A stretch of 64,000 nt of DNA from Nitrosarchaeum sp. (GCA_965223865.1 OZ245020.1:1536001-1600000), one strand, 5' to 3'. Positions 19,439 to 47,382 are shown, numbered from the stretch's first letter. Numbers and translations are program-made. Notes: generated from the letters alone by a model not told the origin.

Positions 19439-19954
19439 TCAAGAAATATTGAAGCTTAAATGGTCATCGTTTATCTCAAACTCCTTAACTGGGCGATTAA
19501 TTGAGTCCATGATGTCTTCTATTGCATATTTTTGAATCATACTCCACTTGTTGCCTAAACTGTGAACCATAGTATATCTTGCATCTCCTTCATCTGATTT
19601 TTTTATCTTAAATGGAATACCATGAGAGATACAGTTTTTTTTAATCGTTGCCAATGCAGACTCTAAAGTGATTTGACCGTGACGGCACATGATCTGTTTT
19701 TTCAGATCATCGGCACATATACTGCCCAATTTGTTAATGTCTTTCTTGTTTACTGAATTAACACATGTTTTGATAAATTCTGGACTCAGCCAAACATAAC
19801 GCAGATCCTGAAAATTACTATACACTTCGTTATGTCTTGCTAAAATGTTGTTGACATGGTTGTTCAGCGTTATTCTTTTTTCACGTGACTCTGTTTTAAG
19901 ACCATCTAAGGTGTCATTGTCTATTCTGAATCCCTTGACAGTATTATTGCCCAT
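19439..19954 (-). CDS. RHH-domain regulator with a C-terminal ligand-binding (V4R-like) domain
   Basis: GFRIDNDTLDGLK..ITLNNHVNNIL; HSLGNKWS motif shared with 36849 and 59451. Confidence 0.7.
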   Translation of the reverse strand: MGNNTVKGFRIDNDTLDGLKTESREKRITLNNHVNNILARHNEVYSNFQDLRYVWLSPEFIKTCVNSVNKKDINKLGSICADDLKKQIMCRHGQITLESALATIKKNCISHGIPFKIKKSDEGDARYTMVHSLGNKWSMIQKYAIEDIMDSINRPVKEFEINDDHLSFNIS

Positions 19955-32801: not shown

Positions 32802-33230
32802 TCATCGTTGTTTTCTCACATTGGGTATGTCTTCATGTTGTAGCCATGCTTCCTTCTTGGTCTGTATCAGTGCCCAAACAGATCCAATTACGACTCCAAC
32901 TTGAACTATTTTGGATACCATACCTAGATGTCCGATCTTTCCTGCGTGCTCCAAACCAAATGCGATTGCGCCTGCATCAGTTCTGGTAACTGCATACAGT
33001 GCGATTATTCCAATGGTTCCTGCTATGGTTACAAGATACGGAGCAGAACTGTTTGGACTCTTTAGCATCCAAAACGCAACTGGAATGTATGCTATTGCCA
33101 CCACCAAAAAGAATGGTCCTTTTATCATGTCTTGCTCTTCAAATAGTTCTTCAGATGTCTCAACAAAGTAAACGGCAGAAGTTGCTATCATAAGACCAAC
33201 GACAATCCCGACTAAAGATTTTTTGTTCAT
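32802..33230 (-). CDS. 4-TM membrane protein
   Basis: Four hydrophobic segments; LYAVTRT and SKIVQ motifs. Confidence 0.75.
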   Translation of the reverse strand: MNKKSLVGIVVGLMIATSAVYFVETSEELFEEQDMIKGPFFLVVAIAYIPVAFWMLKSPNSSAPYLVTIAGTIGIIALYAVTRTDAGAIAFGLEHAGKIGHLGMVSKIVQVGVVIGSVWALIQTKKEAWLQHEDIPNVRKQR

Positions 33231-33266
33231 GTATCAGATATGGTTGAATTTGGATATATTGAGGAA

Positions 33267-33288
33267 GTTTAGACTGCAATCATTTGCA
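33267..33288 (-). promoter_or_regulatory. Box B (TGCAAATGATTGCAGTCTAAAC)
   Basis: 7 bp before ATATATC, upstream of the 33230 start. Confidence 0.6.
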
Positions 33289-33375
33289 ATTATTGTTCTA
33301 AAGACAAATGCCCATTAGACCTAGATTTGCAATCCAAAGAAACTACAGCGGTGTAGTTGTATTCAGTAAAAATAT

Positions 33376-33897
33376 TCAATCATCTCCAACAACAATATGT
33401 AATGTTACCAATGAAGCAAGCAGCATGACAAGACCAAACTGGCCATGAAGAAGCTTGCCAAACAATTTGGAATTTCTAGACGATGTGTATTTTAGCAACA
33501 GTCCGCTTACCGTCATCACACTCATTACAATAGCCAAGGACAAAGAAACCGAATCTAGGTGTCTTGACAGCATAAAACCATGTGTCATTCCCGCAAAATA
33601 CCCTATCGAATTGAGCATTATGTGAAAATTAAGCAATGGTCTGTAGACAGTTCTAATTTGTTTTGCAACTTGCATTGTTGAATTGCCTGTCTTTATGGCA
33701 TATCTTCGGATTTTATTCATTGCAATAAATGGGATATTTGCAACTATTCCTGCTCCAACTGCAATCCATCCTAGGTTTTCTGCAACATCTTCTGCTTCAT
33801 CATCGTCATCTGCGTACGCTAGTGTGGGAGTCATAACTAACAAAGACAGTAGTGAGAAAACCAGAAGCGATTTTGGGGTGATTTTTTTGATTGTCAT
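33376..33897 (-). CDS. Membrane protein with four TM histidines (cytochrome b561/ferric-reductase-like)
   Basis: Signal peptide, acidic patch, then LNFHIML, MTHGF, LLHGQ, VTLHI. Confidence 0.6.
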   Translation of the reverse strand: MTIKKITPKSLLVFSLLSLLVMTPTLAYADDDDEAEDVAENLGWIAVGAGIVANIPFIAMNKIRRYAIKTGNSTMQVAKQIRTVYRPLLNFHIMLNSIGYFAGMTHGFMLSRHLDSVSLSLAIVMSVMTVSGLLLKYTSSRNSKLFGKLLHGQFGLVMLLASLVTLHIVVGDD

Positions 33898-34160
33898 GGT
33901 TTTGCTTTTTTCTTTGATGAGATCTTAAAAGCGGTGTAAGCTACTGAGACCACAATTGCTGCAATAGTTCCATACAAAATTACATTTCCCATTTCCGTGC
34001 CTAATGGAATTCCTTCATCTTGGTGTTCTCTTTCTCTTTTCATTTCTCCAAAACCAATTCTGTCCTCATCATTATCATCTTCTTCAGCATATGTAATTGG
34101 AATTACAAGCGTACCTGAAACTACAATTAAAAGTAAAAACATAATTGATATTAATTTCAT
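33894..34160 (-). CDS. Small secreted, C-terminally anchored acidic protein
   Basis: Signal peptide, EEDDNDED..REREH, C-terminal TM plus KKK; ATGA overlap with the next gene. Confidence 0.75.
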   Translation of the reverse strand: MKLISIMFLLLIVVSGTLVIPITYAEEDDNDEDRIGFGEMKREREHQDEGIPLGTEMGNVILYGTIAAIVVSVAYTAFKISSKKKAKP

Positions 34161-34207
34161 GAATTATTCTGACCCGTTACTTTATGGATTTAAAGAAATA
34201 ATAGAAT

Positions 34208-34234
34208 TTCCACAAATGAAATCCAGTCATGGAA
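34208..34234. promoter_or_regulatory. Tandem box A between divergent genes
   Basis: TTCCACAAATGAAA / ATCCAGTCATGGAA; 48 and 43 bp from the two starts. Confidence 0.7.
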
Positions 34235-34276
34235 AATACAGTCGATCTTATATTGATTTATCACACTTCTAAAGTA

Positions 34277-35260
34277 ATGAAAAAATACGATACTGCCATA
34301 TTCTTTCTTTTAGCTGTTCTGGTACTTTCGATACCAACTAGTTTTGTTTTTGCCAGTGAAGACAATGATGATGACAGGTATGACGATGACCGAGATGATG
34401 ACAGGTATGACGATGACCGAGATGATGACAGGTATGACGATGACCGAGATGATGACAGGTATGACGATGACCGAGATGATGACAGGTATGACGATGACCG
34501 AGATGATGACAGGTATGACGATGACCGAGATGATGACAGGTATGACGATGACCGAGATGATGACAGGTATGACGATGACCGAGATGATGACAGGTATGAC
34601 GATGACCGAGATGATGACAGGTATGACGATGACCGAGATGATGACAGGTATGACGATGACCGAGATGATGACAGAATCAGTGATGGTTCCAAGACATCCG
34701 ATTTCTTCAAAAGAGAAGTAAGAGCTGAAACCCTTGGTTTTCAGACTGAGATAAAAATAGAGATAGAGTTTGTCAGCAATACGACAGATACAAATCAACT
34801 AATTGATCAAATCATTGACAAATTCTCACTTACCAGAGAAGAGGCAGACATGGAACTGAGAATAGAACGTTCTGATGACCAAAGATTAGAAAAAAAATTA
34901 GAAGTTGAAATTGAAAAGAGAGGCAACACATCCAAAGTTGAAGTTGAACTTGAGACAGTAATTGACTCAACTAGCAGAGGAGCAATACTAGATGCTATTG
35001 TAAAAAACAGCCAGCTTACTAGAGAACAAATTAACGAACAACTCCAATTTGATTCTGATGATAATGACAACAATGACTTTTCAAGAAATGAAATGAGAAC
35101 CAATTCAGATTCAACCGAGCTTGAAAAACTAAGACAGGAAAATCAACAACTAAGAGATGAGATTAAGCAACTCAATCAAAAACTAGATGACCTGCAGCAA
35201 ATCATTATGGAACAGATGAAGGTCATAATGGATACTCTCAAAAATCTAAAATCTCAATAA
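34277..35260 (+). CDS. Secreted protein with an (RYDDDRDDD)n repeat and a C-terminal coiled coil
   Basis: Signal peptide MKKYD...VFA, 11 repeats, duplicated beta-rich module, coiled coil; start placed at ATG 34277. Confidence 0.8.
   Translation: MKKYDTAIFFLLAVLVLSIPTSFVFASEDNDDDRYDDDRDDDRYDDDRDDDRYDDDRDDDRYDDDRDDDRYDDDRDDDRYDDDRDDDRYDDDRDDDRYDDDRDDDRYDDDRDDDRYDDDRDDDRYDDDRDDDRISDGSKTSDFFKREVRAETLGFQTEIKIEIEFVSNTTDTNQLIDQIIDKFSLTREEADMELRIERSDDQRLEKKLEVEIEKRGNTSKVEVELETVIDSTSRGAILDAIVKNSQLTREQINEQLQFDSDDNDNNDFSRNEMRTNSDSTELEKLRQENQQLRDEIKQLNQKLDDLQQIIMEQMKVIMDTLKNLKSQ
34367..34674 (+). repeat. 27-bp perfect tandem repeat, 11.4 copies
   Basis: Unit GATGATGACAGGTATGACGATGACCGA. Confidence 0.98.
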
Positions 35261-35298
35261 TTTTTTCTTTTTTGTTTTTTTATTTTAGGATAATTGTT

Positions 35299-35976
35299 CT
35301 AAATTCTTATTATTCCATTTACAATCATAAATTGAATACTTTGTGCAAATTCTTCATCTGATGTGAGTCCTTGGGCCCACCAACCTGCATTCTTCCTTAA
35401 CCATTCAGGTATCTGTGTTTCAGATTCAACTTTCTCTGAATTTGTATTCTGTGGAATGATTATTACTCTAATCTTGATCAGATGTTCTAATCCTTTTGCA
35501 AAATCAGAATCAGATATTTGATTGGAAGACCACCATCCTGCATTGATTTTAATCCATTCTGGGATTTTTAACGAATCCTCTTGGTCATCCTTATTTTGTT
35601 GTGTTGAAACAACAATTACCTTTCCTATCATCCAGGGATGAATTGTACAAAAATAGTCAAAGGTTCCAGATTCCATAAAAGTAAATGACCAAGATTCGCC
35701 TGGACTATATAAGCCACTATCAAATTTCTGATCCATTGCGCCAGGCTTTCCACTTGTAACTGAATGAGGTTCAGAGTCATTATTTGGCCATGTTATTGTA
35801 TCTCCAACATTAATCTTAATTTCTTCAGGAGAATAACAATTATGGAAAGTCGCACATAATCGATTGTGAGCACCCTGTGGGATATTGACTACATGTTCTG
35901 TTGCATATACAAAACTAGGAGGGATTAAAAATACTAAAAACAGCAGGATTAGAATAACTTTTTTTGAATTATTCAT
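35299..35976 (-). CDS. Plastocyanin-like blue copper protein with thaumarchaeal IPxWIKxNAGWW surface repeats
   Basis: PHSVTSG, YFCTIHPWMIG copper ligands; two NAGWW repeats. Confidence 0.92.
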   Translation of the reverse strand: MNNSKKVILILLFLVFLIPPSFVYATEHVVNIPQGAHNRLCATFHNCYSPEEIKINVGDTITWPNNDSEPHSVTSGKPGAMDQKFDSGLYSPGESWSFTFMESGTFDYFCTIHPWMIGKVIVVSTQQNKDDQEDSLKIPEWIKINAGWWSSNQISDSDFAKGLEHLIKIRVIIIPQNTNSEKVESETQIPEWLRKNAGWWAQGLTSDEEFAQSIQFMIVNGIIRI

Positions 35977-36053
35977 ATTTCAATCTACAAAATTTAGTCT
36001 TGTAAAGATTAAAATCAATTTGCATAATTGAAAGAATGAATTTCTTGTCTTGG

Positions 36054-36752
36054 CTAACCAAACAGTTTTCCTCTTTTAGTTAGAGATACTATTGCCAAAA
36101 CTACTCCTGCAGCCCCCAGAGACAATCCAAACACTGCAAAGTCGTATGCTCTACCAGTATCAGATTTTATCTCAATTCCAGAACCAGATCTGATTTCATT
36201 AACATCTCTTTGAATCTGAGATATTGCATTTTTTAGTGCAGCAACATCCGTGTTTGATGATGAACCGCTAGAAGGTGGAAAGTCAAGTATTGCAGTTGTC
36301 TCTACATCTTCTATTGGAACTTGTACATCCACTTGAATTCCTTCAACTTCTCCTTTCAAATCAATTGAGATACTGCCTGTCTTTGTTGGGATTACATGAG
36401 AATAATAGTGTCCAGGTCTTGGATCAGAGCCAATATCTAATACTTTGGTGACTCCTCCATATTTTGCAGTTACCTCTAAATTCTTAAAGGCGTTTTTTAT
36501 TCCCGTTCGTACTCCTTCGGTTTCACCAAGCTCGCTTATCTTAAAGACAAAATCATTTCTGTACCCTACTATTGGCGGCTCGATTCCCCACCCAACATCA
36601 ATCTCAATATTTTCAACTTCTATAGTAGTGTGTGCTGATGCTGGAGTCGTTGATCCGAGAACAAGAAATAGGACCAACAATACAGAAGCGGTAAAATATT
36701 TTCCGCATAGTTCGGATCGAGGAATAACAATTTTGACCATATCAGCACACAT
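36054..36752 (-). CDS. Secreted, C-terminally anchored protein with a His at the mature N-terminus
   Basis: Signal ..ASA|HTT, VGWGIEPP, coiled coil, C-terminal TM. Confidence 0.75.
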   Translation of the reverse strand: MCADMVKIVIPRSELCGKYFTASVLLVLFLVLGSTTPASAHTTIEVENIEIDVGWGIEPPIVGYRNDFVFKISELGETEGVRTGIKNAFKNLEVTAKYGGVTKVLDIGSDPRPGHYYSHVIPTKTGSISIDLKGEVEGIQVDVQVPIEDVETTAILDFPPSSGSSSNTDVAALKNAISQIQRDVNEIRSGSGIEIKSDTGRAYDFAVFGLSLGAAGVVLAIVSLTKRGKLFG

Positions 36753-36784
36753 TTCATTATGTCTCCAAACAATATAACAACAAA

Positions 36785-36806
36785 GACTACAATGTGGTCA
36801 ATTGCA
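36785..36806 (-). promoter_or_regulatory. Box B (TGCAATTGACCACATTGTAGTC)
   Basis: 7 bp before TTATATT; lies between 36054-36752 and the divergent RHH regulator. Confidence 0.65.
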
Positions 36807-36848
36807 GCTAAACTGATAAACTAGTAAAATTGCAAAATCATTAGAAAA

Positions 36849-37376
36849 ATGAGCAGCAAAAAGACATCTAGCATCTCATTTAGAATAGATGAAGAATATG
36901 AAAAAGTGCTAAGAGATATAGCTGAGGAGAACAAAACAAGCCTAAACACTCTTGCAAACCAGATTTTTGGTCAATATGTAGAGTTTGAACTTTATGCCAA
37001 GAAATTTGGTACACTAAGAATGAGCACAGACACCTTTCGTAGAATGCTAAACAGTATAGATGAGAAAAATCTAATTGAGATTGCCACAAGATGTGGAAGT
37101 CAAGAAGTTAAAGAATTCATTTTGTTCAAATGGAAGAGACTTGACTCAAAGACTGTGACTGATTTTATTAAAATCTATTTTGATTTGTGCGGTTATGGAA
37201 GATGTAGTTTAGATAAAACAGAAGGCAATGTCATGTTTAGTGTACATCATGATCTTCAGGAGAAAGGATCCTTGTTTTTAAAACATCTCTTTGAGTCCTT
37301 AATTAGGACAGCACTAGACAAAGATTGCAAAACTGAGATGACTAGTGATACAATAACAGTTAGTTTTCAACCATAA
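36849..37376 (+). CDS. RHH-domain regulator with a V4R-like C-terminal domain
   Basis: TSSISFRIDEE..TSLNTLANQIF; HHDLQEKGS. Confidence 0.8.
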   Translation: MSSKKTSSISFRIDEEYEKVLRDIAEENKTSLNTLANQIFGQYVEFELYAKKFGTLRMSTDTFRRMLNSIDEKNLIEIATRCGSQEVKEFILFKWKRLDSKTVTDFIKIYFDLCGYGRCSLDKTEGNVMFSVHHDLQEKGSLFLKHLFESLIRTALDKDCKTEMTSDTITVSFQP

Positions 37377-37385
37377 TGCTTTGAG

Positions 37386-37407
37386 TGCAATTGACTACAT
37401 TGTAAAC
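37386..37407 (+). promoter_or_regulatory. Box B (TGCAATTGACTACATTGTAAAC)
   Basis: 7 bp before TTATATC, which starts 29 bp before ATG 37444. Confidence 0.65.
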
Positions 37408-37443
37408 TGACCTGTTATATCAAATTCTGCCAATATTATACAC

Positions 37444-37617
37444 ATGGCTAGAACATGTAGAGGAGTATGCATTGAATCAAAAGGAATTCCGATGAGTAAT
37501 AGTATCAGATATCAAAATGGGCAAAAACGATGTACTTTTTGCAGTATATTTTTAGAAGTGTCTAGTATTAGATGCCCCTGTTGCAAAGCAATCCTACGCA
37601 CAAAACCTCGTGGGTAA
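37444..37617 (+). CDS. 57-aa zinc-finger protein (CxGxC...KRCxxC...RCPCC family)
   Basis: MARTCRGVC...GQKRCTFC...RCPCCKAILRTKPR; paralogs at 38070, 40132, 45527. Confidence 0.85.
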   Translation: MARTCRGVCIESKGIPMSNSIRYQNGQKRCTFCSIFLEVSSIRCPCCKAILRTKPRG

Positions 37618-37649
37618 AATCATGAATTTAGTTGAGGACATGACAAAAA

Positions 37650-37766
37650 ATGGAAAAAATAATCTGCGTCAGTTGCAGAGTCGAAATAATTCAATACTAC
37701 AATCACAATTACAATGGGGAAAGAGGTCTCTGTCCAATTTGTAAGACAGACTTTCCACTAGAATAA
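37650..37766 (+). CDS. 38-aa zinc-ribbon microprotein
   Basis: MEKIICVSCRVE...GLCPICKTDFPLE. Confidence 0.7.
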   Translation: MEKIICVSCRVEIIQYYNHNYNGERGLCPICKTDFPLE

Positions 37767-37846
37767 TTATTGATTTGTACATGCATAATTTTATGCAATC
37801 TATGTTCCAAGAAATTTTTTCATAAGTGTTCTACTGTTTCTTTAGC

Positions 37847-37868
37847 TGCAATTGATTGCAGAGTAATC
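37847..37868 (+). promoter_or_regulatory. Box B (TGCAATTGATTGCAGAGTAATC)
   Basis: 7 bp before TTAAATC, upstream of ATG 37907. Confidence 0.6.
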
Positions 37869-37906
37869 TTTCTAGTTAAATCAAATCCATACCAAGTATC
37901 AATGAT

Positions 37907-38086
37907 ATGTTACAATTAGTTACTATTCTAAAAGAAAGTAAGGATGACAAGTTTGCAAAAAGAGGGGTAAAAATTTGCCTTGATTGCGGTAGCTCTAATA
38001 CTTGTTATAATCATAATGGCATTTTTTGCAAAAAATGTGGTAATATTAGAAGGTACGAGTGGGAGAAAAATGGGTACGAGTTGTAA
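37907..38086 (+). CDS. 59-aa zinc-ribbon protein
   Basis: ICLDCGSSNTCYNHNGIFCKKCG; paralog of 39955-40125; overlaps the next start. Confidence 0.7.
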   Translation: MLQLVTILKESKDDKFAKRGVKICLDCGSSNTCYNHNGIFCKKCGNIRRYEWEKNGYEL

Positions 38087-38258
38087 AGGTATTTGTGTAC
38101 AGCTAAAAAGTAGCAGTGTAAGCAACGGCCAAAAATATCTAAAAGGACACAAAAGATGCACATATTGCAGTACGTTTTTGATTACCTCTGAGATCAGGTG
38201 CCCATGTTGTAAGACTATTTTGAGAACCAAGTCTCGTCATCGAAAACATTTTTCTTAA
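38070..38258 (+). CDS. Zinc-finger protein (RCPCC family)
   Basis: MGTSCKGIC...KRCTYC...RCPCCKTILRTK; start placed at ATG 38070. Confidence 0.85.
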   Translation: MGTSCKGICVQLKSSSVSNGQKYLKGHKRCTYCSTFLITSEIRCPCCKTILRTKSRHRKHFS

Positions 38259-38266
38259 AATTTAAT

Positions 38267-38288
38267 TGCAAATAACCACAATGTAATC
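38267..38288 (+). promoter_or_regulatory. Box B (TGCAAATAACCACAATGTAATC)
   Basis: 7 bp before TTATATC, upstream of 38332. Confidence 0.6.
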
Positions 38289-38331
38289 TTCTTGATTATA
38301 TCTCATTGTTGTAAAGTTAAGTTGAAGAGAA

Positions 38332-38655
38332 ATGTCTCAATCAAAACAACAAGAAAAAAAGATGCCATGGAAGTGGTATGTTGGATTTGTGCTAGCAGGA
38401 CTGGCAATACTGTTGATGGTTACTCTTGTACCAATCTGGCATTGGTTTCCAGTAGAGATTACAGAACAGGGAACTGTAGTGGCTATTGTAGATAGAGGAT
38501 GTGTGATTGATACTCCCTCAGTGTCCATGCCAGTGATTCAGGAATGTAGTGCACAGCCAGGAGAAACAGTTGAAGTAACTTACTTTGTTCCTGCAAAGGT
38601 TACAAGTGGATACTTTGAGAGAATGCAAGAAAGAGCTGCACTAGTCCAACCGTAG
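38332..38655 (+). CDS. Small single-TM protein, paralog of 20733-21035
   Basis: VVAIVDRGC...CSAQPG...ERAA. Confidence 0.75.
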   Translation: MSQSKQQEKKMPWKWYVGFVLAGLAILLMVTLVPIWHWFPVEITEQGTVVAIVDRGCVIDTPSVSMPVIQECSAQPGETVEVTYFVPAKVTSGYFERMQERAALVQP

Positions 38656-38661
38656 ATTTTT

Positions 38662-38802
38662 TTATTTTTTCCAAATTTGGTGCTGATCACAGATATACCT
38701 GTTATTTTCCTTGTCATACATACAAACCATTCCACCAATATCTGCATCACACAATGAACATTTGGTGCCTTTTTTTGCTGTGACAATATGTGGTTTTACC
38801 AT
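38662..38802 (-). CDS. 46-aa zinc-finger microprotein
   Basis: MVKPHIVTAKKGTKCSLCDADIGG...YICDQH; ends approximate. Confidence 0.55.
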   Translation of the reverse strand: MVKPHIVTAKKGTKCSLCDADIGGMVCMYDKENNRYICDQHQIWKK

Positions 38803-38877
38803 CTTTAAGCACTAGTTTTCAAGTAGACTAGTGTATATGCATTATCAAAGATAAAAAAAAAGAGAGAAGAGGAATTA

Positions 38878-39843
38878 CTAATGATCTGGAAGCTCATGAA
38901 CATTTAGTATGTATGGCTCTCCAATTGGATATGTGTCCCCATAGCTCCAAAAGTAGTACACTTTACCATATGTTTCATCCAGAATCGGAATAATTGATTC
39001 TAATTCCTTATCGGTGAGTTCCGGAAATGTTGCCTCTGCTCTTGGAAATTCTGTTTTGTGATAATGCCAGTATTGTTTTTCTTCTTCTGGAAGTTCATTA
39101 TATTGCTCTGTTGTTATGACATATTCTATTCCGTATGGTTTGTCTTGGTCAGTCATTCCATATGGATATAGAAGACAAGATGCTGTCATGTCATCATAGA
39201 CTTTGCAGTGATGATGAACTATGGTCTGCAAAAGATGGTCTACTGATCCAAGTGATCTTTCTGGATCAAGATGTCTGTTTGCATGAATGTGCAGATCATT
39301 GAAACCTAGAATGTTTGGATAGTCAATCTGTCTTGGATTCAATGTTTCATTGTATGCTGGTTCTTTTTGCATCATCATTTTTTGACCGTGTTGCATGTGC
39401 TGTTTGTCCTTCATCATGTCTCCCATCATGCTCATGTGCTGAGTCATGTCCATTGACTCCATCTTTTCTATCATCTGACTCATTTTCTGAATCATTTGGG
39501 ACTGTTCTTGTGGAGTCATTGTCTGCCACATCTGCATCATTTGTGTTTGATGCTTCTCGTGAACTTTATCCATCCTATCTAAAACATCATTTAGATTTGT
39601 TTGAGATGACGAATCACTTTTAGGAGTAATTTTTTGCTTCATGTTTTGCCTTTCTTCAGGTGGCATCTCAGAGCATAGTCTGTCTCCACAAACCTGGTTT
39701 TGGGTTGCCTGGCCGTATTTTGATGTGTATGTGCCTTTTGCTTTTGCGGCATCTGCTGTCTGTGTAAAATCAACTGGGATTGTCATTGTTACAGCAAACA
39801 GGATTGTTGTTGCCGTGATTGCTGCAATCATTGTTTTTCTCAT
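38878..39843 (-). CDS. Secreted protein with a Met/Gln-rich linker and a DUF1264 (OBAP-like) domain
   Basis: Signal peptide, VCGDRLCSE motif, Met-rich helices, VHHHCK..CLLY..GIEYVI..LPEEEKQYWHYH. Confidence 0.8.
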   Translation of the reverse strand: MRKTMIAAITATTILFAVTMTIPVDFTQTADAAKAKGTYTSKYGQATQNQVCGDRLCSEMPPEERQNMKQKITPKSDSSSQTNLNDVLDRMDKVHEKHQTQMMQMWQTMTPQEQSQMIQKMSQMIEKMESMDMTQHMSMMGDMMKDKQHMQHGQKMMMQKEPAYNETLNPRQIDYPNILGFNDLHIHANRHLDPERSLGSVDHLLQTIVHHHCKVYDDMTASCLLYPYGMTDQDKPYGIEYVITTEQYNELPEEEKQYWHYHKTEFPRAEATFPELTDKELESIIPILDETYGKVYYFWSYGDTYPIGEPYILNVHELPDH

Positions 39844-39954
39844 TATCTGCAGAACTTGAAATTTCATATATAACCAAAACACACAGTTTCCGATGCCGAT
39901 TTCCGCATATGGTAATCGTATATGGAAATTGTCTTTTTCTGCATATATTGTGAA

Positions 39955-40125
39955 ATGATTTTACAGACCATGAGACAAGTTTTAGATGTTCCCAGACACC
40001 CACAAAACCATTGCCACAAGAACCTACAAACACGAACATGTCTTGTTTGTAAAAGTAACAGCACCTGTGTAAACCAAGGGATGTATTGCAAATCATGTGG
40101 ATTTTTGTGGGACATGAAAAAATGA
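39955..40125 (+). CDS. Zinc-ribbon protein
   Basis: TCLVCKSNSTCVNQGMYCKSCG; start placed at ATG 39955. Confidence 0.65.
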   Translation: MILQTMRQVLDVPRHPQNHCHKNLQTRTCLVCKSNSTCVNQGMYCKSCGFLWDMKK

Positions 40126-40131
40126 TGAACC

Positions 40132-40332
40132 ATGGCAACTGCGTGCAAGGGAGTATGTCATCACTACAAAAGTAAAGGCATCTCAACTAAAGACAAATAT
40201 CAACCAGGTCAAAAGAGATGCTCATACTGCAATGTCTTTTTGTCTTATGATGGGCTGCGTTGTCCATGTTGTGAAATGATACTCAGAACACATTCACATG
40301 GTACAAAACACAAGTCTACCAATAAGAACTAG
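40132..40332 (+). CDS. Zinc-finger protein (RCPCC family)
   Basis: MATACKGVC...GQKRCSYC...RCPCCEMILRT. Confidence 0.85.
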   Translation: MATACKGVCHHYKSKGISTKDKYQPGQKRCSYCNVFLSYDGLRCPCCEMILRTHSHGTKHKSTNKN

Positions 40333-40666
40333 TTCCCATTCCATCATTGTCTACAATTTGCACATCCAAAGCATCCAGTCCAAACACCACGTAGATTGCC
40401 TTGATTCTACTCTGGTAAAGAAAGTATTTTTTTCCGTCATCAGTAACAATTGAACCTGTAACCTTTAGGATCTTGTTTTCTTCTAGTTCATGAACACGTC
40501 TGTATGCGGTAGTCATTGGAATGTTGCAGTCTTTGACAATATCTACTACCGATTTTGGTTTTTCAATGGCATAATTCATGATGGTTCTAGAATATTCATC
40601 AGACAAGGCCTTTAGAATCGCCTTTCTAAAATTTGAATCCCTTGGAAGGATCTTAAAATCCGCCAT
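40316..40666 (-). CDS. ArsR-like winged-helix regulator
   Basis: LSDEYSRTI...IPMTTAYRRVHEL...DGKKYFLYQS. Confidence 0.85.
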   Translation of the reverse strand: MADFKILPRDSNFRKAILKALSDEYSRTIMNYAIEKPKSVVDIVKDCNIPMTTAYRRVHELEENKILKVTGSIVTDDGKKYFLYQSRIKAIYVVFGLDALDVQIVDNDGMGTSSYW

Positions 40667-40735
40667 AGTAGTCTGTTATGGTGCAATCCTTATTGCATAT
40701 AATCTTGGTTTTGTAAAAACAAAAAATAATGGAAT

Positions 40736-41488
40736 TTACATTCCCATCTGTTTAATGTCAGAGTTCCATGCCTTCATGCCGCCTTCTAGAACTTGAAAGT
40801 CAATATTTTCTTGGGCAAGTGCATATGTAGCAATTGTTGCCCTATTTCCTGAACCACAGATAACTATTACTGGTTTGTCAGTAGGAATTTCATCTGCACC
40901 ATTAGGCTCAAATATTTGTGACAAAGGTATGTTTACTGCGCCATCTATCTTGGATTGAAGTAATTCATCAGGTTCCCTTACATCTAGCAGATAAATATCC
41001 TCATTTGCAGTAATTTTCTGCATCAGTTCTTCAGAATCAATTACAGCTTGAGAACTAGATACAAGATTTTCAGACAAATGATTCATGCCTCCATTGAGAT
41101 AGAACGTCTTGATTCCCATCTGAGTCATGGTTTGCGCTGCCTGCTTTGCTTTTGTACCATCCTCATCAACTAAAACAAGATTGTATTGTGATGCAACATC
41201 AGGCAGCCTATTTTGGATTGTAGCCACTCGTTTTTCTAGTGTTGCTGAATCCACATAGTTATCATGAGATGCACCATTCAGATGTCCTGCTTGGTATTGT
41301 TCTGCAGTTCTAATATCGACAACCAAGACAGGTTCATTGTTTTGAAGCTGTGCAAAAACTGTTGTTTGGTCAATTGCATATTTGTCAACAGCATATTGAG
41401 AACTGTACTGTTCTATAGATAATAATACTCCAATTACTGCCACTCCGATGACAATTGATGCAATAATTCCTATTTTTTTAATTTGCAT
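40736..41488 (-). CDS. Membrane-anchored tandem rhodanese
   Basis: VVDIRTAEQYQAGHL; LLDVREPDE...ICGSGNRA...LEGGMKAW (catalytic Cys only in domain 2). Confidence 0.9.
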   Translation of the reverse strand: MQIKKIGIIASIVIGVAVIGVLLSIEQYSSQYAVDKYAIDQTTVFAQLQNNEPVLVVDIRTAEQYQAGHLNGASHDNYVDSATLEKRVATIQNRLPDVASQYNLVLVDEDGTKAKQAAQTMTQMGIKTFYLNGGMNHLSENLVSSSQAVIDSEELMQKITANEDIYLLDVREPDELLQSKIDGAVNIPLSQIFEPNGADEIPTDKPVIVICGSGNRATIATYALAQENIDFQVLEGGMKAWNSDIKQMGM

Positions 41489-41530
41489 AGATTAACAGAG
41501 ATGCTGACTGCTATTATACCAAAACACATT

Positions 41531-41557
41531 TTTCAGAAATAGTTTTCAGGTGTGGAA
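41531..41557. promoter_or_regulatory. Tandem box A between divergent rhodanese and DUF302 genes
   Basis: TTTCAGAAATAGTT / TTTCAGGTGTGGAA; 43 bp from each start. Confidence 0.65.
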
Positions 41558-41599
41558 ATCGTATTTCTGTAATATATTCATTTGAAATGTAAGTGAGCC

Positions 41600-41986
41600 A
41601 TGAGCTTTTCTCACACTGTAAAAACCCAAAAAAGTATTGATGAGGCAATTGCAAGTCTCACTGAAAATCTTAAAGATATTGGTTTTGGAGTTTTAGAAAT
41701 TTTGGATTTTAAGAAAATTCTATCAGAGAAAGGATTAGAATTTTCTGATAATTACAGGCTAATGGAAGTGTGTAATCCCAATCTCGCAAAACAAGTTTTA
41801 GAATCTAATCCTGATCTTGGACTATTATTGCCATGTACCATTGCGGTATATCAAAAAGAAAATGAAAATTATATTAGTTTAGCGAGGCCTACATCTTTGT
41901 TAGCAATGGCATCAGAACAAAATTTTCAGTTTACAGGAGAAGAGATTGAAAGTAATCTCATCAAAATTATAGATAGTGCAAAATAG
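41600..41986 (+). CDS. DUF302 domain protein
   Basis: GFGVL..D, EVCNP..A, GLLLPCTIAVY. Confidence 0.9.
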   Translation: MSFSHTVKTQKSIDEAIASLTENLKDIGFGVLEILDFKKILSEKGLEFSDNYRLMEVCNPNLAKQVLESNPDLGLLLPCTIAVYQKENENYISLARPTSLLAMASEQNFQFTGEEIESNLIKIIDSAK

Positions 41987-42002
41987 AAAAAGGATAGATG
42001 GT

Positions 42003-42518
42003 ATGTCTTTTTTTAAAACTGTTGAAAAGAGACGCTCAATCAGATCATTTTCTAATAAACCTGTAGAAAAATCAAAAATTCAGAAAATACTCAATACCTC
42101 AATGGCTAGCCCTTCTGCAAAAGGACTGCAAAGTTACAGAGTATATGTAGTCGAAGATGACAAGAAAAAGAAAAAACTGGTACCTGCATGTCATGATCAA
42201 GAATATGTTGATACCTCATTACTTTTGATATTTTGCACCGAATCCACAAAAATTAGAAAGGAAATGGGAGTAAGAGGAGAAAGATTACTGTCAGTCCAAG
42301 ATGCTACAATTGCTGCAAGTTATGCACAGCTAGCTGCAACTTCACTAGGATTGTCCAGTGTCTGGATTGGAAATTTTAATGAAAAACAGGTTGCCAAAAT
42401 CATTAGAACCAAACTACGTCCTGTAGTTGTTCTTCCAATTGGCTATGAAAAAAAATCCAACAAGAAACATTTTCCTCCTGAAAAGAAAAAGATTCAAGAC
42501 ATGATAAAAATGGTGTAA
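42003..42518 (+). CDS. Nitroreductase family protein
   Basis: KRRSIRSF, SPSAKGLQ, QDATIAASY..LGLSSVWIG; start placed at ATG 42003. Confidence 0.9.
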   Translation: MSFFKTVEKRRSIRSFSNKPVEKSKIQKILNTSMASPSAKGLQSYRVYVVEDDKKKKKLVPACHDQEYVDTSLLLIFCTESTKIRKEMGVRGERLLSVQDATIAASYAQLAATSLGLSSVWIGNFNEKQVAKIIRTKLRPVVVLPIGYEKKSNKKHFPPEKKKIQDMIKMV

Positions 42519-42526
42519 AACAAATA

Positions 42527-42889
42527 ATGAAAGGCACCTATGCATTGATTCTAAATGTTAGAAAAGAATTTTCTTCTGATGTCGGTAGTCTAAAAAACAT
42601 GAAATTCAAGAAAGGAAATTACATCTATGTAGGATCTGCTTTAAATTCTCTGGAGAAAAGAGTACAAAGGCACATCAGAAAAGAGAAAAAGATTCATTGG
42701 CACATAGACCGTTTAACCACATCTCAGCATTCATCAATTAAAAAAATACTATATCTAAAAACAGAGTCAAGACTAGAATGCAAACTAAGCCAGAATGTTG
42801 CAAAGTTACCAAATGTTATGCCAGTGCAGAAATTTGGTTCGACCGACTGTAGATCAGGATGTAAGTCTCATCTGTATTATGTCAATTGA
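42527..42889 (+). CDS. DUF123/GIY-YIG (Uri) superfamily nuclease
   Basis: KGTYAL..YIYVGSA..RVQRH..HWHID..FGSTDC..CKSHL. Confidence 0.9.
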   Translation: MKGTYALILNVRKEFSSDVGSLKNMKFKKGNYIYVGSALNSLEKRVQRHIRKEKKIHWHIDRLTTSQHSSIKKILYLKTESRLECKLSQNVAKLPNVMPVQKFGSTDCRSGCKSHLYYVN

Positions 42890-42988
42890 ATCTGATTGCA
42901 TGTTCAGAGATAGTGGTTATAATAGTGTGTTTGGTCTGAATCAAAAAGAATAACCAAATCAAATCATACTTTTTTTCTTGACAGGGAA

Positions 42989-43147
42989 CTATCTGCTCTT
43001 CAAACCATCTCTTAAGACAGAATTTACCACGTGAGAAAAACTGACGTTTCTTTTTGTTTTTCTTATCATGTTGGCCTGTCTCTCTCTTAGCGCATCTTCA
43101 ATTTCTCTGTCAATCATAACCGAGATTCTACTTGTTTCTGGTTTCAT
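42989..43147 (-). CDS. 52-aa ribbon-helix-helix protein
   Basis: RISVMIDREIEDALRERQA...VSFSHVVNSVLRDGL; missed by the ORF track. Confidence 0.75.
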   Translation of the reverse strand: MKPETSRISVMIDREIEDALRERQANMIRKTKRNVSFSHVVNSVLRDGLKSR

Positions 43148-43176
43148 GCTAAATTCACCAAAAAAGAAAAGAGAGG

Positions 43177-43713
43177 CTAGTAGTCTAGCACTACATCAGC
43201 TTCGGCCAGAACTCTCTGAAGTTTTGGCATGTACGGATGTGGATCAATCTCTACTCCGCGGAGAAGATTATCGACATCAAAGCTTCCAATACAGTGCTCA
43301 CATGCAATCACTCGTCCACCATCGTTGATGAATGCCTTTAGAGCCTCATACTGTACAGTCAATGCAGTTGGTCTGTCATCGTCTGCAATTCGAACTCCGT
43401 CAACATCCAATAGTACTACAACATGTTTCCCGGCATCCTGAAATGCCTTGGCATGTTGAATTCCCATCATGGCCGAATGTCTTTCATGCTGACTATCAGG
43501 ATCTCCACTGGTTATGTGAACAACATATAACCTGTCCATACCTGTGCTTAATCCTGCATGTAGTCTTTCTATCTCAAGGCCTTCTTGAGGCGCACCCTCT
43601 GGATAGACATAAGCATCTGCATCAAAACCTCCACTTTGAACAGAAATTGCCGCAACGATCAAAAGAGTTGCAAGGGCAGATCCCGTAATGGAATATTTCA
43701 GAATTGATTTCAT
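43177..43713 (-). CDS. Secreted or anchored DsrE-family protein
   Basis: VVHITSG..VVVLLDVDGVR..GGRVIACEHC..ADVVLDY. Confidence 0.85.
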   Translation of the reverse strand: MKSILKYSITGSALATLLIVAAISVQSGGFDADAYVYPEGAPQEGLEIERLHAGLSTGMDRLYVVHITSGDPDSQHERHSAMMGIQHAKAFQDAGKHVVVLLDVDGVRIADDDRPTALTVQYEALKAFINDGGRVIACEHCIGSFDVDNLLRGVEIDPHPYMPKLQRVLAEADVVLDY

Positions 43714-43774
43714 TGATTGTATAATGGAACAATATTAAAAAACAAAATTGGGAGGTTCATCGAATGTACCAATA

Positions 43775-44272
43775 TTACAATGCCAAAAAAATATCCTCAG
43801 AATGTTCTTTTTTATTATTGAGTAGTTTTGAAAACTCTTTTCTAAATGTGTATTTTAGCAATCCCATATTTTTTATCTCATAGTATGTTTTTTTGTCATT
43901 TGTTATTTTTTCTATTATGTCATTTTTTATTAATTCCGAAATATTCCACGATGTTGTCGCAGGACTCTTGCCAATTTTGGATACAATCTCCCTGAAAGTG
44001 GGAGTTCCTTTCACTATTATTGTAAAGAGGATTTTCTTTTTCGTAGGTTTTCTCAAGTTTCTTATAATATCAAATTCTTCTTCATCTATATCTAGAGAAA
44101 AATATCGGTGATACCTTGTGTATTTTTTTGATTTTATCTTTCCTTCTTTTTCTAATTTTCGCAGGTAATGCTCAGTTACACCCTTTTCTAGTCCAGTTTC
44201 ATTAATTATACCACAGAAATGAATCCCAGGATTATCCTTGATGGTCTCCAGTATGAGATCTGATCTTTTCAA
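43775..44272 (-). CDS. Double winged-helix regulator
   Basis: IKDNPGIHF..HYLRKLE; second HTH SPATTSWNISEL. Confidence 0.85.
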   Translation of the reverse strand: MKRSDLILETIKDNPGIHFCGIINETGLEKGVTEHYLRKLEKEGKIKSKKYTRYHRYFSLDIDEEEFDIIRNLRKPTKKKILFTIIVKGTPTFREIVSKIGKSPATTSWNISELIKNDIIEKITNDKKTYYEIKNMGLLKYTFRKEFSKLLNNKKEHSEDIFLAL

Positions 44273-44300
44273 CCTAGGTTTTGTTGATGTTTATCAATAT

Positions 44301-44429
44301 CTAAGATTTTTGATGTATCTTGTATCTGGTTCCATCTTCATGGATGCATTCATCTCCGATGTGATGATGATTTTCATGTCCTTTGTGTTTGTGATGTTCT
44401 TGGTCTTCACAGTTGCAGGTTTTTTCCAA
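44301..44429 (-). CDS. 42-aa His/Cys-rich micropeptide, copy 1
   Basis: MEKTCNCEDQEHHKHKGHENHHHIGDECIHEDGTRYKIHQKS (TTG start); paralog at 58073; box A 44 bp upstream. Confidence 0.8.
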   Translation of the reverse strand: MEKTCNCEDQEHHKHKGHENHHHIGDECIHEDGTRYKIHQKS

Positions 44430-44472
44430 TGTTTGATGGCATCAAACTTGCTATTAATAATAAAAATATGAT

Positions 44473-44486
44473 TTCCAATATTGAAA
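44473..44486. promoter_or_regulatory. Box A (TTCCA-ATAT-TGAAA)
   Basis: 44 bp upstream of TTG 44429. Confidence 0.65.
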
Positions 44487-44535
44487 TCAAAAATATTAAA
44501 AATTGATTTGATTCCAACCAACTACATTCAAAAAA

Positions 44536-45249
44536 CTAGCCATAGATAGTATCTCTAATCTGTTCTGTCTCTTTTTGTGTTTTTTTGATTCTTTTTTCAG
44601 CCTTGGCAGACTCATTTTTTATTATTTTAAGATTGCACGGTAGTTTTGGTATGAACATTCCCATTGTAAGGCATAATTTTGCTCCAGATTCAAAATCTGG
44701 ACTATTCTTTGTTTTAGGAAAAAATAGCAAAACTATGACCCCTTGATTAGAAAATCTTCCTTGGTTTAACAACATACCTGGAATTCCGGGTATTGTAAGA
44801 TCCAAGGACATCTCAATTCCAAGAGATTTTATCTCGTTTCTTGCATTCTCAGTACTGCCAATTGCAGCTATGTCTTTAGTGAGTTTTGGATTCATTACCA
44901 TTCCTACAGTGCTGATTATCTTCTTGCAATGATGTTTTTTTGCATATTCTAACATTACCTTTGCAATTGCTCGTGAAAATGATTCGGGTAAAGACAGATG
45001 TGACAAAAATACTGCAACTTTGAGTTTTTCATTTACAAAGATGTTTACTGGATAATATGGAATACCACCTCTTACTAGACTTATTGGAGGAAAATCTACT
45101 GAGTTTAAAAAACCTGCAAGTTTAAAATCGGATGTACTTGTCATTGATTCTGCAGCAATACTGCCTGCAAGACCCACATTTGGAAAACCATCTATTACGT
45201 AGCCCCCTTCCAGATCACAATCCAGAAGTTCTGTTATTTCGATGATCAT
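44536..45249 (-). CDS. PAC2-family proteasome assembly chaperone-like protein
   Basis: IDGFPNVGLAGSIA, PDFESGA, C-terminal IYG (HbYX-like). Confidence 0.85.
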   Translation of the reverse strand: MIIEITELLDCDLEGGYVIDGFPNVGLAGSIAAESMTSTSDFKLAGFLNSVDFPPISLVRGGIPYYPVNIFVNEKLKVAVFLSHLSLPESFSRAIAKVMLEYAKKHHCKKIISTVGMVMNPKLTKDIAAIGSTENARNEIKSLGIEMSLDLTIPGIPGMLLNQGRFSNQGVIVLLFFPKTKNSPDFESGAKLCLTMGMFIPKLPCNLKIIKNESAKAEKRIKKTQKETEQIRDTIYG

Positions 45250-45468
45250 GAGATCAGTTATGCATTATAATCTAAAAGAAAGCAAGAACAATATCAAAGG
45301 TGAAAATGAACAAGACAAGATACATGAAAAATTATCTCAAATTTATTATTTGCATGCATGTATTTTCTGTAACAAATTATAGATAACCCACAATATTGTT
45401 TTGGGATGATTGCAAAACTGAAATGACTTGTGACACAATTAAGGTTGGTTTTCAGTCACAATTATAAT

Positions 45469-45696
45469 TGCAATTCAACACATTGCAAACGGACCTATTA
45501 TATCAAATTCTGCCAATATCTACTGTATGACCATAATCTGTAAGGGATATGCATTGAATCAAAGGGAATTCCTATGAGTAACAGTAAAAGATATCAAAAT
45601 GGGTAAAGACGATGTACATTTTGTAGTATATTCTTAGTAGCAGGTATTAGATGCCCTTGTTGTAAAGCAATATTGCGAACAAAACCACGCACTTGA
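45469..45696 (+). pseudogene. Decayed duplicate of 37386-37617 (box B promoter plus RCPCC zinc-finger gene)
   Basis: Clear DNA similarity; 1-nt deletion in codons 7-8 and a CAA>TAA change. Confidence 0.85.
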
Positions 45697-45788
45697 AATT
45701 TAATTTCAATTAACCAAGCACGCTACCGGATTATGTTTTATAATTATAAAATTAATTTGAAGAAAAATTAAAATCAGATGTTGAACAT

Positions 45789-46311: not shown

Positions 46312-46893
46312 TTAATCATTAGCATATCCTCTAAGTTGATCATACAATGAAATCTGTTCTAAGCTTAAAACATCTGCTGTCTTAAGGTGAGCCTGAAGAT
46401 GGATATTTCTTAGTTGCCACTTTATCTCGCTGCTATTTTTTAGAAGTTCACTTAACTCCTCAGAAGTTATAGATTTGTCCACAAACTTTCCATCAATTTC
46501 TCTTTCAATTTCAATAAATTGCTGGCCAAGTGGCACTGCTTGTTGAGACATTTCCTGATAGAATAATTCAATTTGTTCTTTCTGTTCAGGGGTCAAATTA
46601 AGTTCTTCAGACAAATCTAAAACGTGTCTTGGTCCTGGATAGCTATTCAATTCAGCTGGTAAAGCCATTCCTACTCCATGACCTTTTGGAATTCCTGTCA
46701 ATTCTCTAGCAGTCAATGACTTTATTTCTCTTGTTTGCTCTCCTGCCCAAGGAGAATGAGTCATTGGTGTACTAGACATTTCTTCCTGATGGCCTTTTGG
46801 GTCTTCAGTTTCAAACATGATATATCCTACACCGATTCCAACAAGAAATACTCCAACTACGATTGGAATCCATAAAACCTGATTAAACGACAT
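46312..46893 (-). CDS. Membrane-anchored Spy/CpxP (LTXXQ)-like protein
   Basis: SPWAGEQTREIKSL..AELNSYPGPRHVL..LNLTPEQ..LSLEQISLYDQLRGY. Confidence 0.75.
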   Translation of the reverse strand: MSFNQVLWIPIVVGVFLVGIGVGYIMFETEDPKGHQEEMSSTPMTHSPWAGEQTREIKSLTARELTGIPKGHGVGMALPAELNSYPGPRHVLDLSEELNLTPEQKEQIELFYQEMSQQAVPLGQQFIEIEREIDGKFVDKSITSEELSELLKNSSEIKWQLRNIHLQAHLKTADVLSLEQISLYDQLRGYAND

Positions 46894-46914
46894 TTTATTC
46901 CCGATGTTTCAGAT

Positions 46915-47382
46915 TCAAGAATGCGAATACCCACGTAAAATGTCGTATTGCCTGATTTGTTCAGGATCTAGGATTTTTTTTGTAGCTAAATGACATCGTA
47001 AATGTGTAAAACGAAGTTTTCCCCATAATTCTCCTGATTTTTTCAGATACTCTTGCAATTGTTGCTCAGTCATCTCTTCTTTTGCAAATCCATCATCAAT
47101 CATTTTTTCCGTTTTGATAAACTCTTCACCTAATTCTTTTGCATCTTTTTCCATCTCATCGTAGATTTCTTGAGTCTGTTTTCTTTGCTCATTTGTTATG
47201 CCAAGTTGTTCACCTAGTTCTAAGACATGAATAGGTCCAGGATGGTGGTTTAACTCAGCAAGAATTGCCATTCCACCAAAAATTCCACCTCTTCCTCTTC
47301 GAATGATTTGAATATCTTTTTCAGAAAGGGATTTGATTTCTCTAGTTTCAAGACCAGAATATTTTGATTTTGTTTCACTCAT
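46915..47382 (-). CDS. Soluble Spy/CpxP-like paralog
   Basis: YSGLETREIKSLS..AELNHHPGPIHVL..LDPEQIRQYDILRGY; no signal peptide. Confidence 0.75.
   Translation of the reverse strand: MSETKSKYSGLETREIKSLSEKDIQIIRRGRGGIFGGMAILAELNHHPGPIHVLELGEQLGITNEQRKQTQEIYDEMEKDAKELGEEFIKTEKMIDDGFAKEEMTEQQLQEYLKKSGELWGKLRFTHLRCHLATKKILDPEQIRQYDILRGYSHS

Follow-up and report, generated by a model that had tools for sequence, protein, structure and literature searches.

Box B, a 22-bp promoter element held 7 nt before TATA, and its predicted ribbon-helix-helix regulator in Nitrosarchaeum

A 22-bp promoter element, here called Box B, is predicted to be the operator of a family of ribbon-helix-helix (RHH) regulators in Nitrosarchaeum and its relatives. 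The starting point was a 64-kb window of a Nitrosarchaeum sp. genome (C1:1536001-1600000 of G000, 2.01 Mb, 34% GC), in which Box B stands exactly 7 nt before a TATA hexamer at six promoters. Four of these are close to the gene for a 175-aa protein, R1, which has an N-terminal RHH region and a C-terminal sensor-like domain. The assignment of Box B to the neighboring RHH-sensor regulator is well supported by comparison of sequences. In the reading favored here, Box B would serve R1 and its paralogue R2 as operator, and the bound regulator would activate transcription by recruiting TFB/TBP; this reading as a whole is given about an even chance of being right. Positions without a contig prefix are counted from the first nucleotide of the window.

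The window contains more Box B matches than shuffled sequence. A search with the pattern TGCAAWTNAYYRCANNNTARNC, allowing up to two mismatches, found seven matches, compared with 0.62 expected from shuffled controls (largest shuffle count, 3). Five have no mismatches (33267 and 36785 on the minus strand; 37386, 37847, and 38267 on the plus strand), and one has two (45469, plus strand). These are the six sites claimed by the initial annotation, and all of them are present: the TATA hexamer starts exactly 7 nt past the box in each (TTATAT in four, ATATAT and TTAAAT in the others), and an ATG lies 20-33 nt beyond the hexamer. The seventh match (48065, minus strand, two mismatches) has no TATA and no promoter context and is probably due to chance. 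On the minus strand the site at 33254-33288 consists of box 33267-33288, spacer (N7) 33260-33266, and ATATAT at 33254-33259, with a position weight matrix (PWM) score of 49.8, and the site at 36772-36806 has box 36785-36806 and TTATAT at 36772-36777 (score 40.9). On the plus strand are 37386-37420 (48.9), which begins 10 nt past the R1 stop codon, 37847-37881 (TTAAAT; 43.1), 38267-38301 (48.6), and 45469-45503 (40.8). The R1 gene occupies 36849-37376 on the plus strand, and four sites were correctly placed within about 1 kb of it, at distances of 43, 10, 471, and 891 nt. The first of these, the box at 36785, is divergent from R1, 43 nt from its ATG. The site at 45469 is inside a decayed duplicate (45403-45700) of 37320-37625, which contains the last ~45 nt of the R1 gene, the box, and a zinc-ribbon gene broken by a 1-nt deletion and an in-frame stop. 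The earlier count of five independent sites in the window is therefore fair.

The spacing between Box B and TATA is constant throughout the genome. There are 12 Box B sites in the whole genome, in three clusters, and the six outside the window were found by a mismatch scan, all with N7 (C1:184606-, 185409-, 364241-, 364290+, 365202+, and 367439+, where the sign gives the strand). Two of them, 364241- and 364290+, stand back to back at C1:364228-364324 at a distance of 27 bp, each driving one of a pair of divergent operons; 364290+ has a degenerate TATA, TCTTAT. The strict core has 16 matches in the genome; exactly at +7 the hexamer is WTWWAT in 11 of them and TCTTAT in one, and the other four lack a TATA, with a WTWWAT background of 0.0052 per position. 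PWM scores are bimodal, with the 12 sites at 35.6-50.6 bits, the next best match at 16.9, and shuffled sequences at no more than 15.7, a separation that is circular in part, the same sites having been used to train the PWM. Loss of the N7 spacing at other matches had been named beforehand as the result that would count against the prediction. The box ends 7 nt before TATA at 12 of 12 genome sites and at all true sites in relatives, and no other spacing occurs among the true sites of the genome.

The internal structure of Box B fits binding by RHH dimers. Its anatomy was derived from 24 true, non-identical sites in seven genomes; a 25-site table also holds one chance match. The invariant positions are T1, G2, C3, A4, T7, C13, A14, A19, and C22, and the box is made up of the tandem half-sites TGCAnnTnA and yrCAnnnTA, each of ~10-11 bp, followed by a conserved TAAwC. 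Corresponding elements are separated by 10 bp, from TGCA (1-4) to yrCA (11-14) and from T7-n-A9 to T18-A19. RHH operators generally consist of repeated half-sites about one helical turn apart that are bound by at least two dimers, and if two RHH dimers bind along one DNA face, two tandem half-sites of this kind are what one would expect. The N7 spacer is T/C-rich and semi-conserved, and it reads TTCTTGA or TTCTTCA at many sites. A separate half-site-like sequence, TGCAAAAT, occurs alone at 36831-36838, 11-18 nt before the R1 ATG in the presumed leader or transcription start site region, and it might serve autoregulation of R1.

R1 belongs to the RHH superfamily by its sequence profile and, in structural models, by its fold and its N-terminal-strand dimer, in agreement with the initial annotation. 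The RHH region covers residues ~4-54. A profile of 63 family members matched RHH proteins over residues ~3-54 (AvtR with E 1.1e-4; MazE7, Arc, NikA, and CopG more weakly). Weak Pfam matches among the 63 members were to HicB (29), CopG_antitoxin (12), and RHH_1 (5), with all single-protein scores below the curated cut-offs. In the AlphaFold2 model of R1 (pLDDT 94.8), residues 4-56 match RHH structures with Z scores of 5.5-7.6, including Rv0298 (Z 7.6, rmsd 1.3 Å, 50 residues), TacA1, SvtR, PutA-RHH, and NikR. The homodimer model has an ipSAE of 0.86 compared with 0.00 for the best control, a value that may reflect likeness to solved RHH dimers; in calibration the mark was reached by 20 of 30 solved pairs and by 1 of 23 single chains. 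Contacts agreed between dimer runs at 98% or better, with a partner pLDDT of 91, and the modeled interface consists of the N-terminal strand (4-18), the RHH helices, the linker, and residues 113-116.

The C-terminal domain of R1 (~55-175) probably has a Bet3/V4R/H-NOX-like fold. The closest fold matches of the modeled region ~42-175 (VIA-align) are BcsD (Z 8.8), the VirS N-terminal domain (8.6), and DmpR (8.5 over 130 residues), followed by Bet3 (8.3-8.4), PoxR (8.0), H-NOX (7.4), and the V4R protein MJ1460 (7.2), and Foldseek matches agree (TM 0.40-0.48). The best matches thus include V4R-type phenol sensors, and the earlier description of the domain as V4R-like holds at the level of fold. 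Some observations weigh against this assignment. Z scores of 7-9 are middling and common for models without a true relative; R1 has no sequence match to Pfam V4R (PF02830) at E 0.01 or better; and V4R is absent among the 25 most frequently matched of the 50 Pfam families hit by the 63 members at E 0.1 or better. H134 is invariant across the family. From its modeled fold, R1 may sense a ligand through this domain.

The R1 family is large, and the description of it as uncharacterized was borne out. R1 matches no Pfam (E 0.01 or better) or NCBIfam family, its relatives in Nitrosarchaeum and Nitrosopumilus are all named only "hypothetical", and the family comprises 773 clusters at 50% identity (E 0.001 or better). 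The paralogue R2 (C1:364666-365187) is 52% identical to R1, and its gene belongs to the second box cluster and has a site 14 nt away. Box-adjoining regulators form two clades that are about 30% identical in the sensor domain. Clade 1, which contains R1, R2, and their relatives, has the motif CGYGxC and a pair of histidines (C113, C119, H133, and H134), and clade 2, from genus g10, has no cysteines at the CGYGxC positions. Both clades have the strand KKTS[ST][IM][ST]FRIDE, at which the six other paralogues of the genome differ, and reading of the flanks and the PWM scan found no Box B near those six genes. Two distant RHH-sensor paralogues are encoded in the window at 19484-19933 (minus strand) and 59457-59726 (plus strand), with E values to R1 of 2.5e-5 and 8.3e-5, and neither has a Box B nearby. 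The only PWM score above 12 beyond the 12 sites belongs to a "sister" box outside the window (C1:421016-421050), TGCAsTGCAwkGCAaaGTrTTC with N7-TTATAT(C), of which further copies occur in two relatives (G001:C12:16599, G001:C161:8299, and G003:C2:94414). In the Nitrosarchaeum genome the gene driven by this box encodes a winged-helix protein of 110 aa (420648-420980), no RHH gene adjoins the box, and it may be the operator of another RHH-sensor paralogue.

The conservation of Box B beside regulator genes supports the link between the two. The strict box-N7-TATA arrangement was found in 6 of 61 relatives (G000, G001, G003, G004, G020, and G015), and a reversed-pattern control gave no matches. 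Close orthologues of R1 (E 1e-50 or better) are present in five of the 61 (G001, G003, G004, G020, and G050), and a site adjoins the orthologue in every one; in G050, which is from a different family, it has one mismatch and is 50 nt from the gene. Family-wide, the arrangement occurs in 37 of 251 genomes and 9 of 27 genera, with 54 matches compared with 1 for the reversed control; the genome tally takes in two unpublished genomes (G229 and G251) and is 35 of 249 without them. Excluding those two, 32 loci from 29 further genomes were examined by searching their open frames with a hidden Markov model of the regulator family. A family gene lies within 31 bp of the site in 25 of these genomes and at 153 bp in one, with gaps measured to stop-to-stop frames and true gaps to start codons somewhat larger. 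It is absent in three, two of which have atypical matches that are probably due to chance, and the site in the third (G197) looks real. Combined, a family gene is found within 153 bp of a site in 31 of 34 other genomes and within about 50 bp in 30, a fraction that overstates the number of independent events because the genomes are related. The box occurs in three arrangements: divergent from the regulator gene, just past its stop codon, or overlapping its promoter.

Reading of the box by another protein is quite improbable. According to this explanation the reader would be a small winged-helix (ArsR/TrmB-like) protein or a specialized TFB paralogue, and the RHH gene would be a mere neighbor or target. 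A winged-helix homologue is found at 18 of 44 box-bearing loci, and its gene is directly driven by the box in clade 2. The first genome cluster (184-186 kb) has boxes and a winged-helix gene without an RHH gene, and sequence conservation passes through TATA to about +10 beyond (C36, A39, and C46), as though a whole promoter cassette were conserved. The 15 clade-2 loci also count against the RHH assignment: there the box lies between the RHH gene and the winged-helix gene, so adjacency cannot distinguish them. On the other hand, the winged-helix gene is absent at 26 of the 44 loci, including most first-clade loci (L001, L002, L009-L011, L013, L044-L051, L056, L071, and L073). At these an RHH-family gene is no more than 31 bp away, except at L049, a second site of G239, where the fetched stretch contains no family gene. 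In addition, RHH dimers fit a tandem arrangement of half-sites spaced by one helical turn, and the beta-strand kept across two divergent RHH clades matches the conserved box core, with variation confined to non-core positions.

Shared inheritance could also produce similar promoters with no dedicated factor, if one promoter cassette was copied repeatedly along with small genes that are paralogues. Duplication is evident for several sites, which share downstream sequence: 37386, 45469, and 185409 form one set, and 364241 and 367439 another. Many targets are paralogous, including the zinc-ribbon and two-cysteine membrane protein families described below. These duplicates, and the many sites that precede paralogous or orthologous genes, mean that independent events are fewer than the site counts, which weakens the case for a dedicated regulator as well. 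However, the flanks, N7 spacers, and leaders have diverged while 11 core positions are invariant across sites, the proteins encoded at those sites are only ~45-60% identical, and the box is found in 9 of 27 genera and in a second family. It also precedes at least eight unrelated gene families. Inheritance alone is therefore regarded as extremely improbable.

The position of Box B within the promoter favors activation by the RHH-sensor regulator. Genome-wide, TTATAT upstream of long open reading frames peaks 22-24 nt before ATG, so that Box B promoters are of the ordinary kind, leaderless or nearly so. Among sequencing runs, four of one study were found to contain this stretch, and no RNA run was listed. 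At about -58 to -37, the box immediately precedes the position of the B recognition element (BRE), which at these promoters is pyrimidine-rich and A-poor. An A stands 4 nt before TATA at 1 of the 25 tabulated sites, and 3 nt before TATA likewise at 1; these sites are non-independent and include the chance match. The A fractions at the same positions are 0.43 and 0.39 in 288 leaderless-type promoters, selected from 1761 by a TATA-like hexamer 21-25 nt before ATG. Activation is favored because the box is just upstream of the BRE with invariant spacing, a good TATA, and an A-poor stretch before TATA. In the proposed mechanism two RHH dimers would dock on the tandem half-sites, on one DNA face just upstream of the BRE position, and would help TFB/TBP assemble at promoters that have a good TATA and a poor BRE. 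Whether the protein binds DNA or activates would be set by the Bet3/V4R-like domain according to a signal, for which copper and thiol/persulfide chemistry are leads. The regulator would also control its own gene from a box beside or over its promoter. By analogy it may repress itself while activating its targets, a combination that is known for LysR-type regulators in bacteria.

Repression by the same protein at the same operator is a distinct possibility, though not a probable one. TFB/TBP would be hindered at the adjacent BRE/TATA by two dimers bound to the box, and perhaps a third bound to TAAwC-N7, until a signal at the C-terminal domain released the protein, as in bacterial metal and persulfide sensors encoded beside their targets. 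Several points favor this and weigh against activation. Characterized RHH regulators are mostly repressors, and repressors are just as typically encoded beside their own operators, the arrangement seen in 31 of 34 genomes. The semi-conserved N7 means that the protein may cover the BRE and block TFB. At R2, box positions 15-22 and N7 read in reverse complement as AAGAA-GTTTATAC, 29 nt before the R2 ATG, so that binding would cover the TATA of R2 itself. The targets resemble stress or detoxification genes (rhodanese-MBL, TauE, cupredoxins, and LTXXQ). The poor BRE is a soft argument for activation, since the BRE signal is weak in the crude set of genome promoters (A 0.49 and 0.43). A proposed third upstream repeat unit, marked by T at -4, was also dropped: the T was present at 24 of 24 sites in the first set and at only 22 of 31 in the second. 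Against repression, the conserved half-sites at about -58 to -37 are upstream of the TBP and TFB seats. Occlusion needs no single spacing, yet N7 is found at every true site. The lack of A-rich positions before TATA, unlike the tendency of other promoters in the genome, fits dependence on a helper.

The predicted mode of activation by R1 and R2 has a partial precedent in other archaea. In Pyrococcus furiosus, TFB-RF1 (PF1088) occupies DNA immediately ahead of weak BREs and stimulates transcription by TFB recruitment, with a footprint reported at -47 to -70 from the start codon and a reported activation of about six- to seven-fold (PMC5937170). In Methanococcus, deletion of the BRE is reported to bypass the need for the activator EarA (PMC5512572). 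Like Box B, the TFB-RF1 operator is described as lying just upstream of BRE/TATA, and the TFB-RF1 gene belongs to a locus that TFB-RF1 itself controls, as predicted for R1. The TFB-RF1 site is given as a palindrome (TCTG-N5-CAGA), whereas Box B has tandem half-sites, and two targets with demonstrated activation are reported for TFB-RF1, compared with 12 sites and predicted activation for Box B. The DNA-binding domain of TFB-RF1 is not known to be an RHH.

The domain combination of R1 resembles known regulators in part. R1 would read DNA as an RHH dimer like NikR, MetJ, Arc, CopG, and AvtR, and as in NikR the RHH region is joined to a C-terminal domain, which in NikR is the ligand and metal domain. 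The C-terminal domain of R1 differs, with best fold matches to V4R, Bet3, H-NOX, and BcsD; NikR chains align to residues 4-51 only, and the matches listed for the sensor domain are of another fold class, while a missing match is no proof of a different fold. NikR half-sites are inverted, in contrast to the tandem half-sites of Box B, and the location of Box B upstream of the BRE with fixed spacing is unlike the usual placement of RHH repressor sites. MsvR and the regulators DmpR, PoxR, and MopR couple a V4R-type sensor to a DNA-binding output, as R1 may do to judge by its modeled fold. Their output is a helix-turn-helix (HTH) or sigma-54 activator module rather than RHH; R1 has no Pfam V4R sequence match, and its CGYGxC...HH cysteine pattern is found in only one clade. 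In MsvR, an HTH-V4R protein of methanogens, the V4R cysteines are reported to make DNA binding redox-sensitive (PMC3729527). Copper-responsive genes of Nitrososphaera viennensis share motifs located about -35 to -70 relative to the start codon, in the neighborhood of copper-related genes and a regulator of the ArsR type; the consensus sequences are TTCSGSMTTTGWACYANT and RATTTAAABATAGATTTAAATAATAAS, and the accessible sections of the report assign no regulator to them (PMC7785015). These motifs, as printed there, differ in sequence from Box B, and the likeness is that they are promoter motifs in an ammonia-oxidizing archaeon. A literature search that covered few subscription journals found no paper on the R1 family, on Box B, or on the assignment of a regulator to an operator in ammonia-oxidizing archaea.

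The genes behind Box B in the window encode zinc-ribbon, secreted, and membrane proteins. The box at 33267 precedes a gene for a 142-aa membrane protein of no known family (32802-33230, minus strand), whose ATG is 23 nt past TATA. Its orthologue in G004, likewise behind Box B, is the first gene of an operon that also encodes an acidic protein and a cytochrome-b-like membrane protein. Behind the box at 36785 is a gene for a 228-aa secreted, C-terminally anchored protein (36054-36740, minus strand), followed on the same strand by a cupredoxin gene (35299-35976). The 228-aa protein has an invariant AHT just after the signal peptide, and its beta-sandwich model (pLDDT 64.7) gave weak matches to copper-binding CrdA and to P19/FetP (best E 9e-4, TM 0.28/0.51), so that the modeled resemblance to copper-binding proteins is a weak lead only. 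On the plus strand, the box at 37386 precedes a 57-aa zinc-ribbon gene (37444-37617, ATG 23 nt past TATA) and probably also drives 37650-37766. The box at 37847 precedes overlapping genes for zinc-ribbon proteins of 59 aa (37907-38086) and 62 aa (38070-38258), and the box at 38267 precedes a gene for a 107-aa membrane-anchored two-cysteine protein (38332-38655). In all, four zinc-ribbon microproteins in two operons are behind boxes in the window. The two-cysteine membrane protein is the commonest and most widely conserved target family across genomes; for the 107-aa protein, a protein atlas returned only unnamed thaumarchaeal clusters, and most targets have no Pfam or NCBIfam match.

Targets outside the window extend this list. 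Elsewhere in the genome, boxes precede two more two-cysteine proteins, another zinc-ribbon gene, a D/H-rich secreted protein, and an acidic secreted protein together with a cytochrome-b-like membrane protein. Another Box B operon consists of a rhodanese-rhodanese-MBL gene followed by TauE, and at six newly fetched loci, as in G000, G004, and G050, a rhodanese-MBL gene is behind an R2-type site with its ATG 22 nt past TATA. The clade-2 sites drive the winged-helix regulator gene, and in G003 a site with one mismatch precedes a multicopper oxidase gene. The initial annotation was thus right in naming zinc-finger microproteins and membrane proteins as targets, and its list was incomplete, lacking the rhodanese-MBL/TauE operon, the acidic secreted proteins, the winged-helix regulator, the secreted protein resembling copper proteins, and the multicopper oxidase of one relative. 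A PWM scan found no weaker site upstream of the remaining cluster genes, whether the 33376-34160 operon, the plastocyanin-like gene, the DUF1264 gene, or the rhodanese gene at 40736-41488.

Other features of these loci are recorded here as observations. The zinc-ribbon proteins belong to a seven-cysteine family of 57-66 aa (M[AG]xxC[KR]G[IV]C...RCPCC) with at least five copies in the genome, for example at 40132-40332 and 38070-38258 in the window, and members are behind Box B in different genera (L071 and L073 are among these loci). The gene for a secreted protein at 34229-35260, between two box-driven operons, contains about eleven perfect copies of a 36-bp repeat that encodes DDDRYDDDRDDD; the orthologue in G004 has a longer repeat unit (DDRYDDNDRDDD...). 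The segment 40736-43713, which has no Box B and is sulfur- and redox-flavored in content, encodes a double rhodanese, DUF302, nitroreductase, and DUF123/GIY-YIG proteins and a secreted protein with a weak DsrE-like match. Two LTXXQ (Spy/CpxP-like) paralogues are located at 46312-47382. In G003, the locus beside the R1 orthologue (L011, G003:C1:25367-28891) has a copper- or metal-flavored content: a Dps-like ferritin, a Met/Gln/His-rich secreted protein, and a regulator with Lrp-HTH and TRASH domains.

The targets and their neighbors (cupredoxins, Met/His-rich DUF1264, LTXXQ, DsrE-like, and rhodanese proteins) hint at copper or reactive sulfur stress as the signal, and this is a lead. A more specific proposal is that the CGYGxC...HH cysteine and histidine cluster of one clade, which touches the modeled dimer interface, senses copper or thiol/persulfide stress. 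Family members would be register-locked activators that recruit TFB where a usable BRE is absent and turn on secreted, membrane, and sulfur-transfer genes that form a mobile set. In this full form the proposal is rather unlikely.

Box B and R1 have implications for gene regulation in ammonia-oxidizing archaea, which drive much of global nitrification. As predicted from sequence, the pair consists of a one-component regulator, whose RHH region is joined to a sensor domain not described before, and an operator in fixed register with BRE/TATA. The 175-aa protein and the 22-bp site, with its invariant bases and strict spacing to TATA, make up together with 12 targets predicted in the genome a concrete and testable gene switch, in a group for which hardly any others are known. 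The analysis points out a large unannotated regulator family that has no Pfam or NCBIfam model, and its results suggest that a position beside the BRE, of the activator type, is one from which an RHH protein can act. The regulon gives a first shared functional context to a set of uncharacterized secreted and membrane proteins, to zinc-ribbon microproteins, and to the rhodanese-MBL/TauE operon. If true, this would be the first regulator-operator-signal system in ammonia-oxidizing archaea and an example of an RHH protein acting as a promoter-proximal activator.

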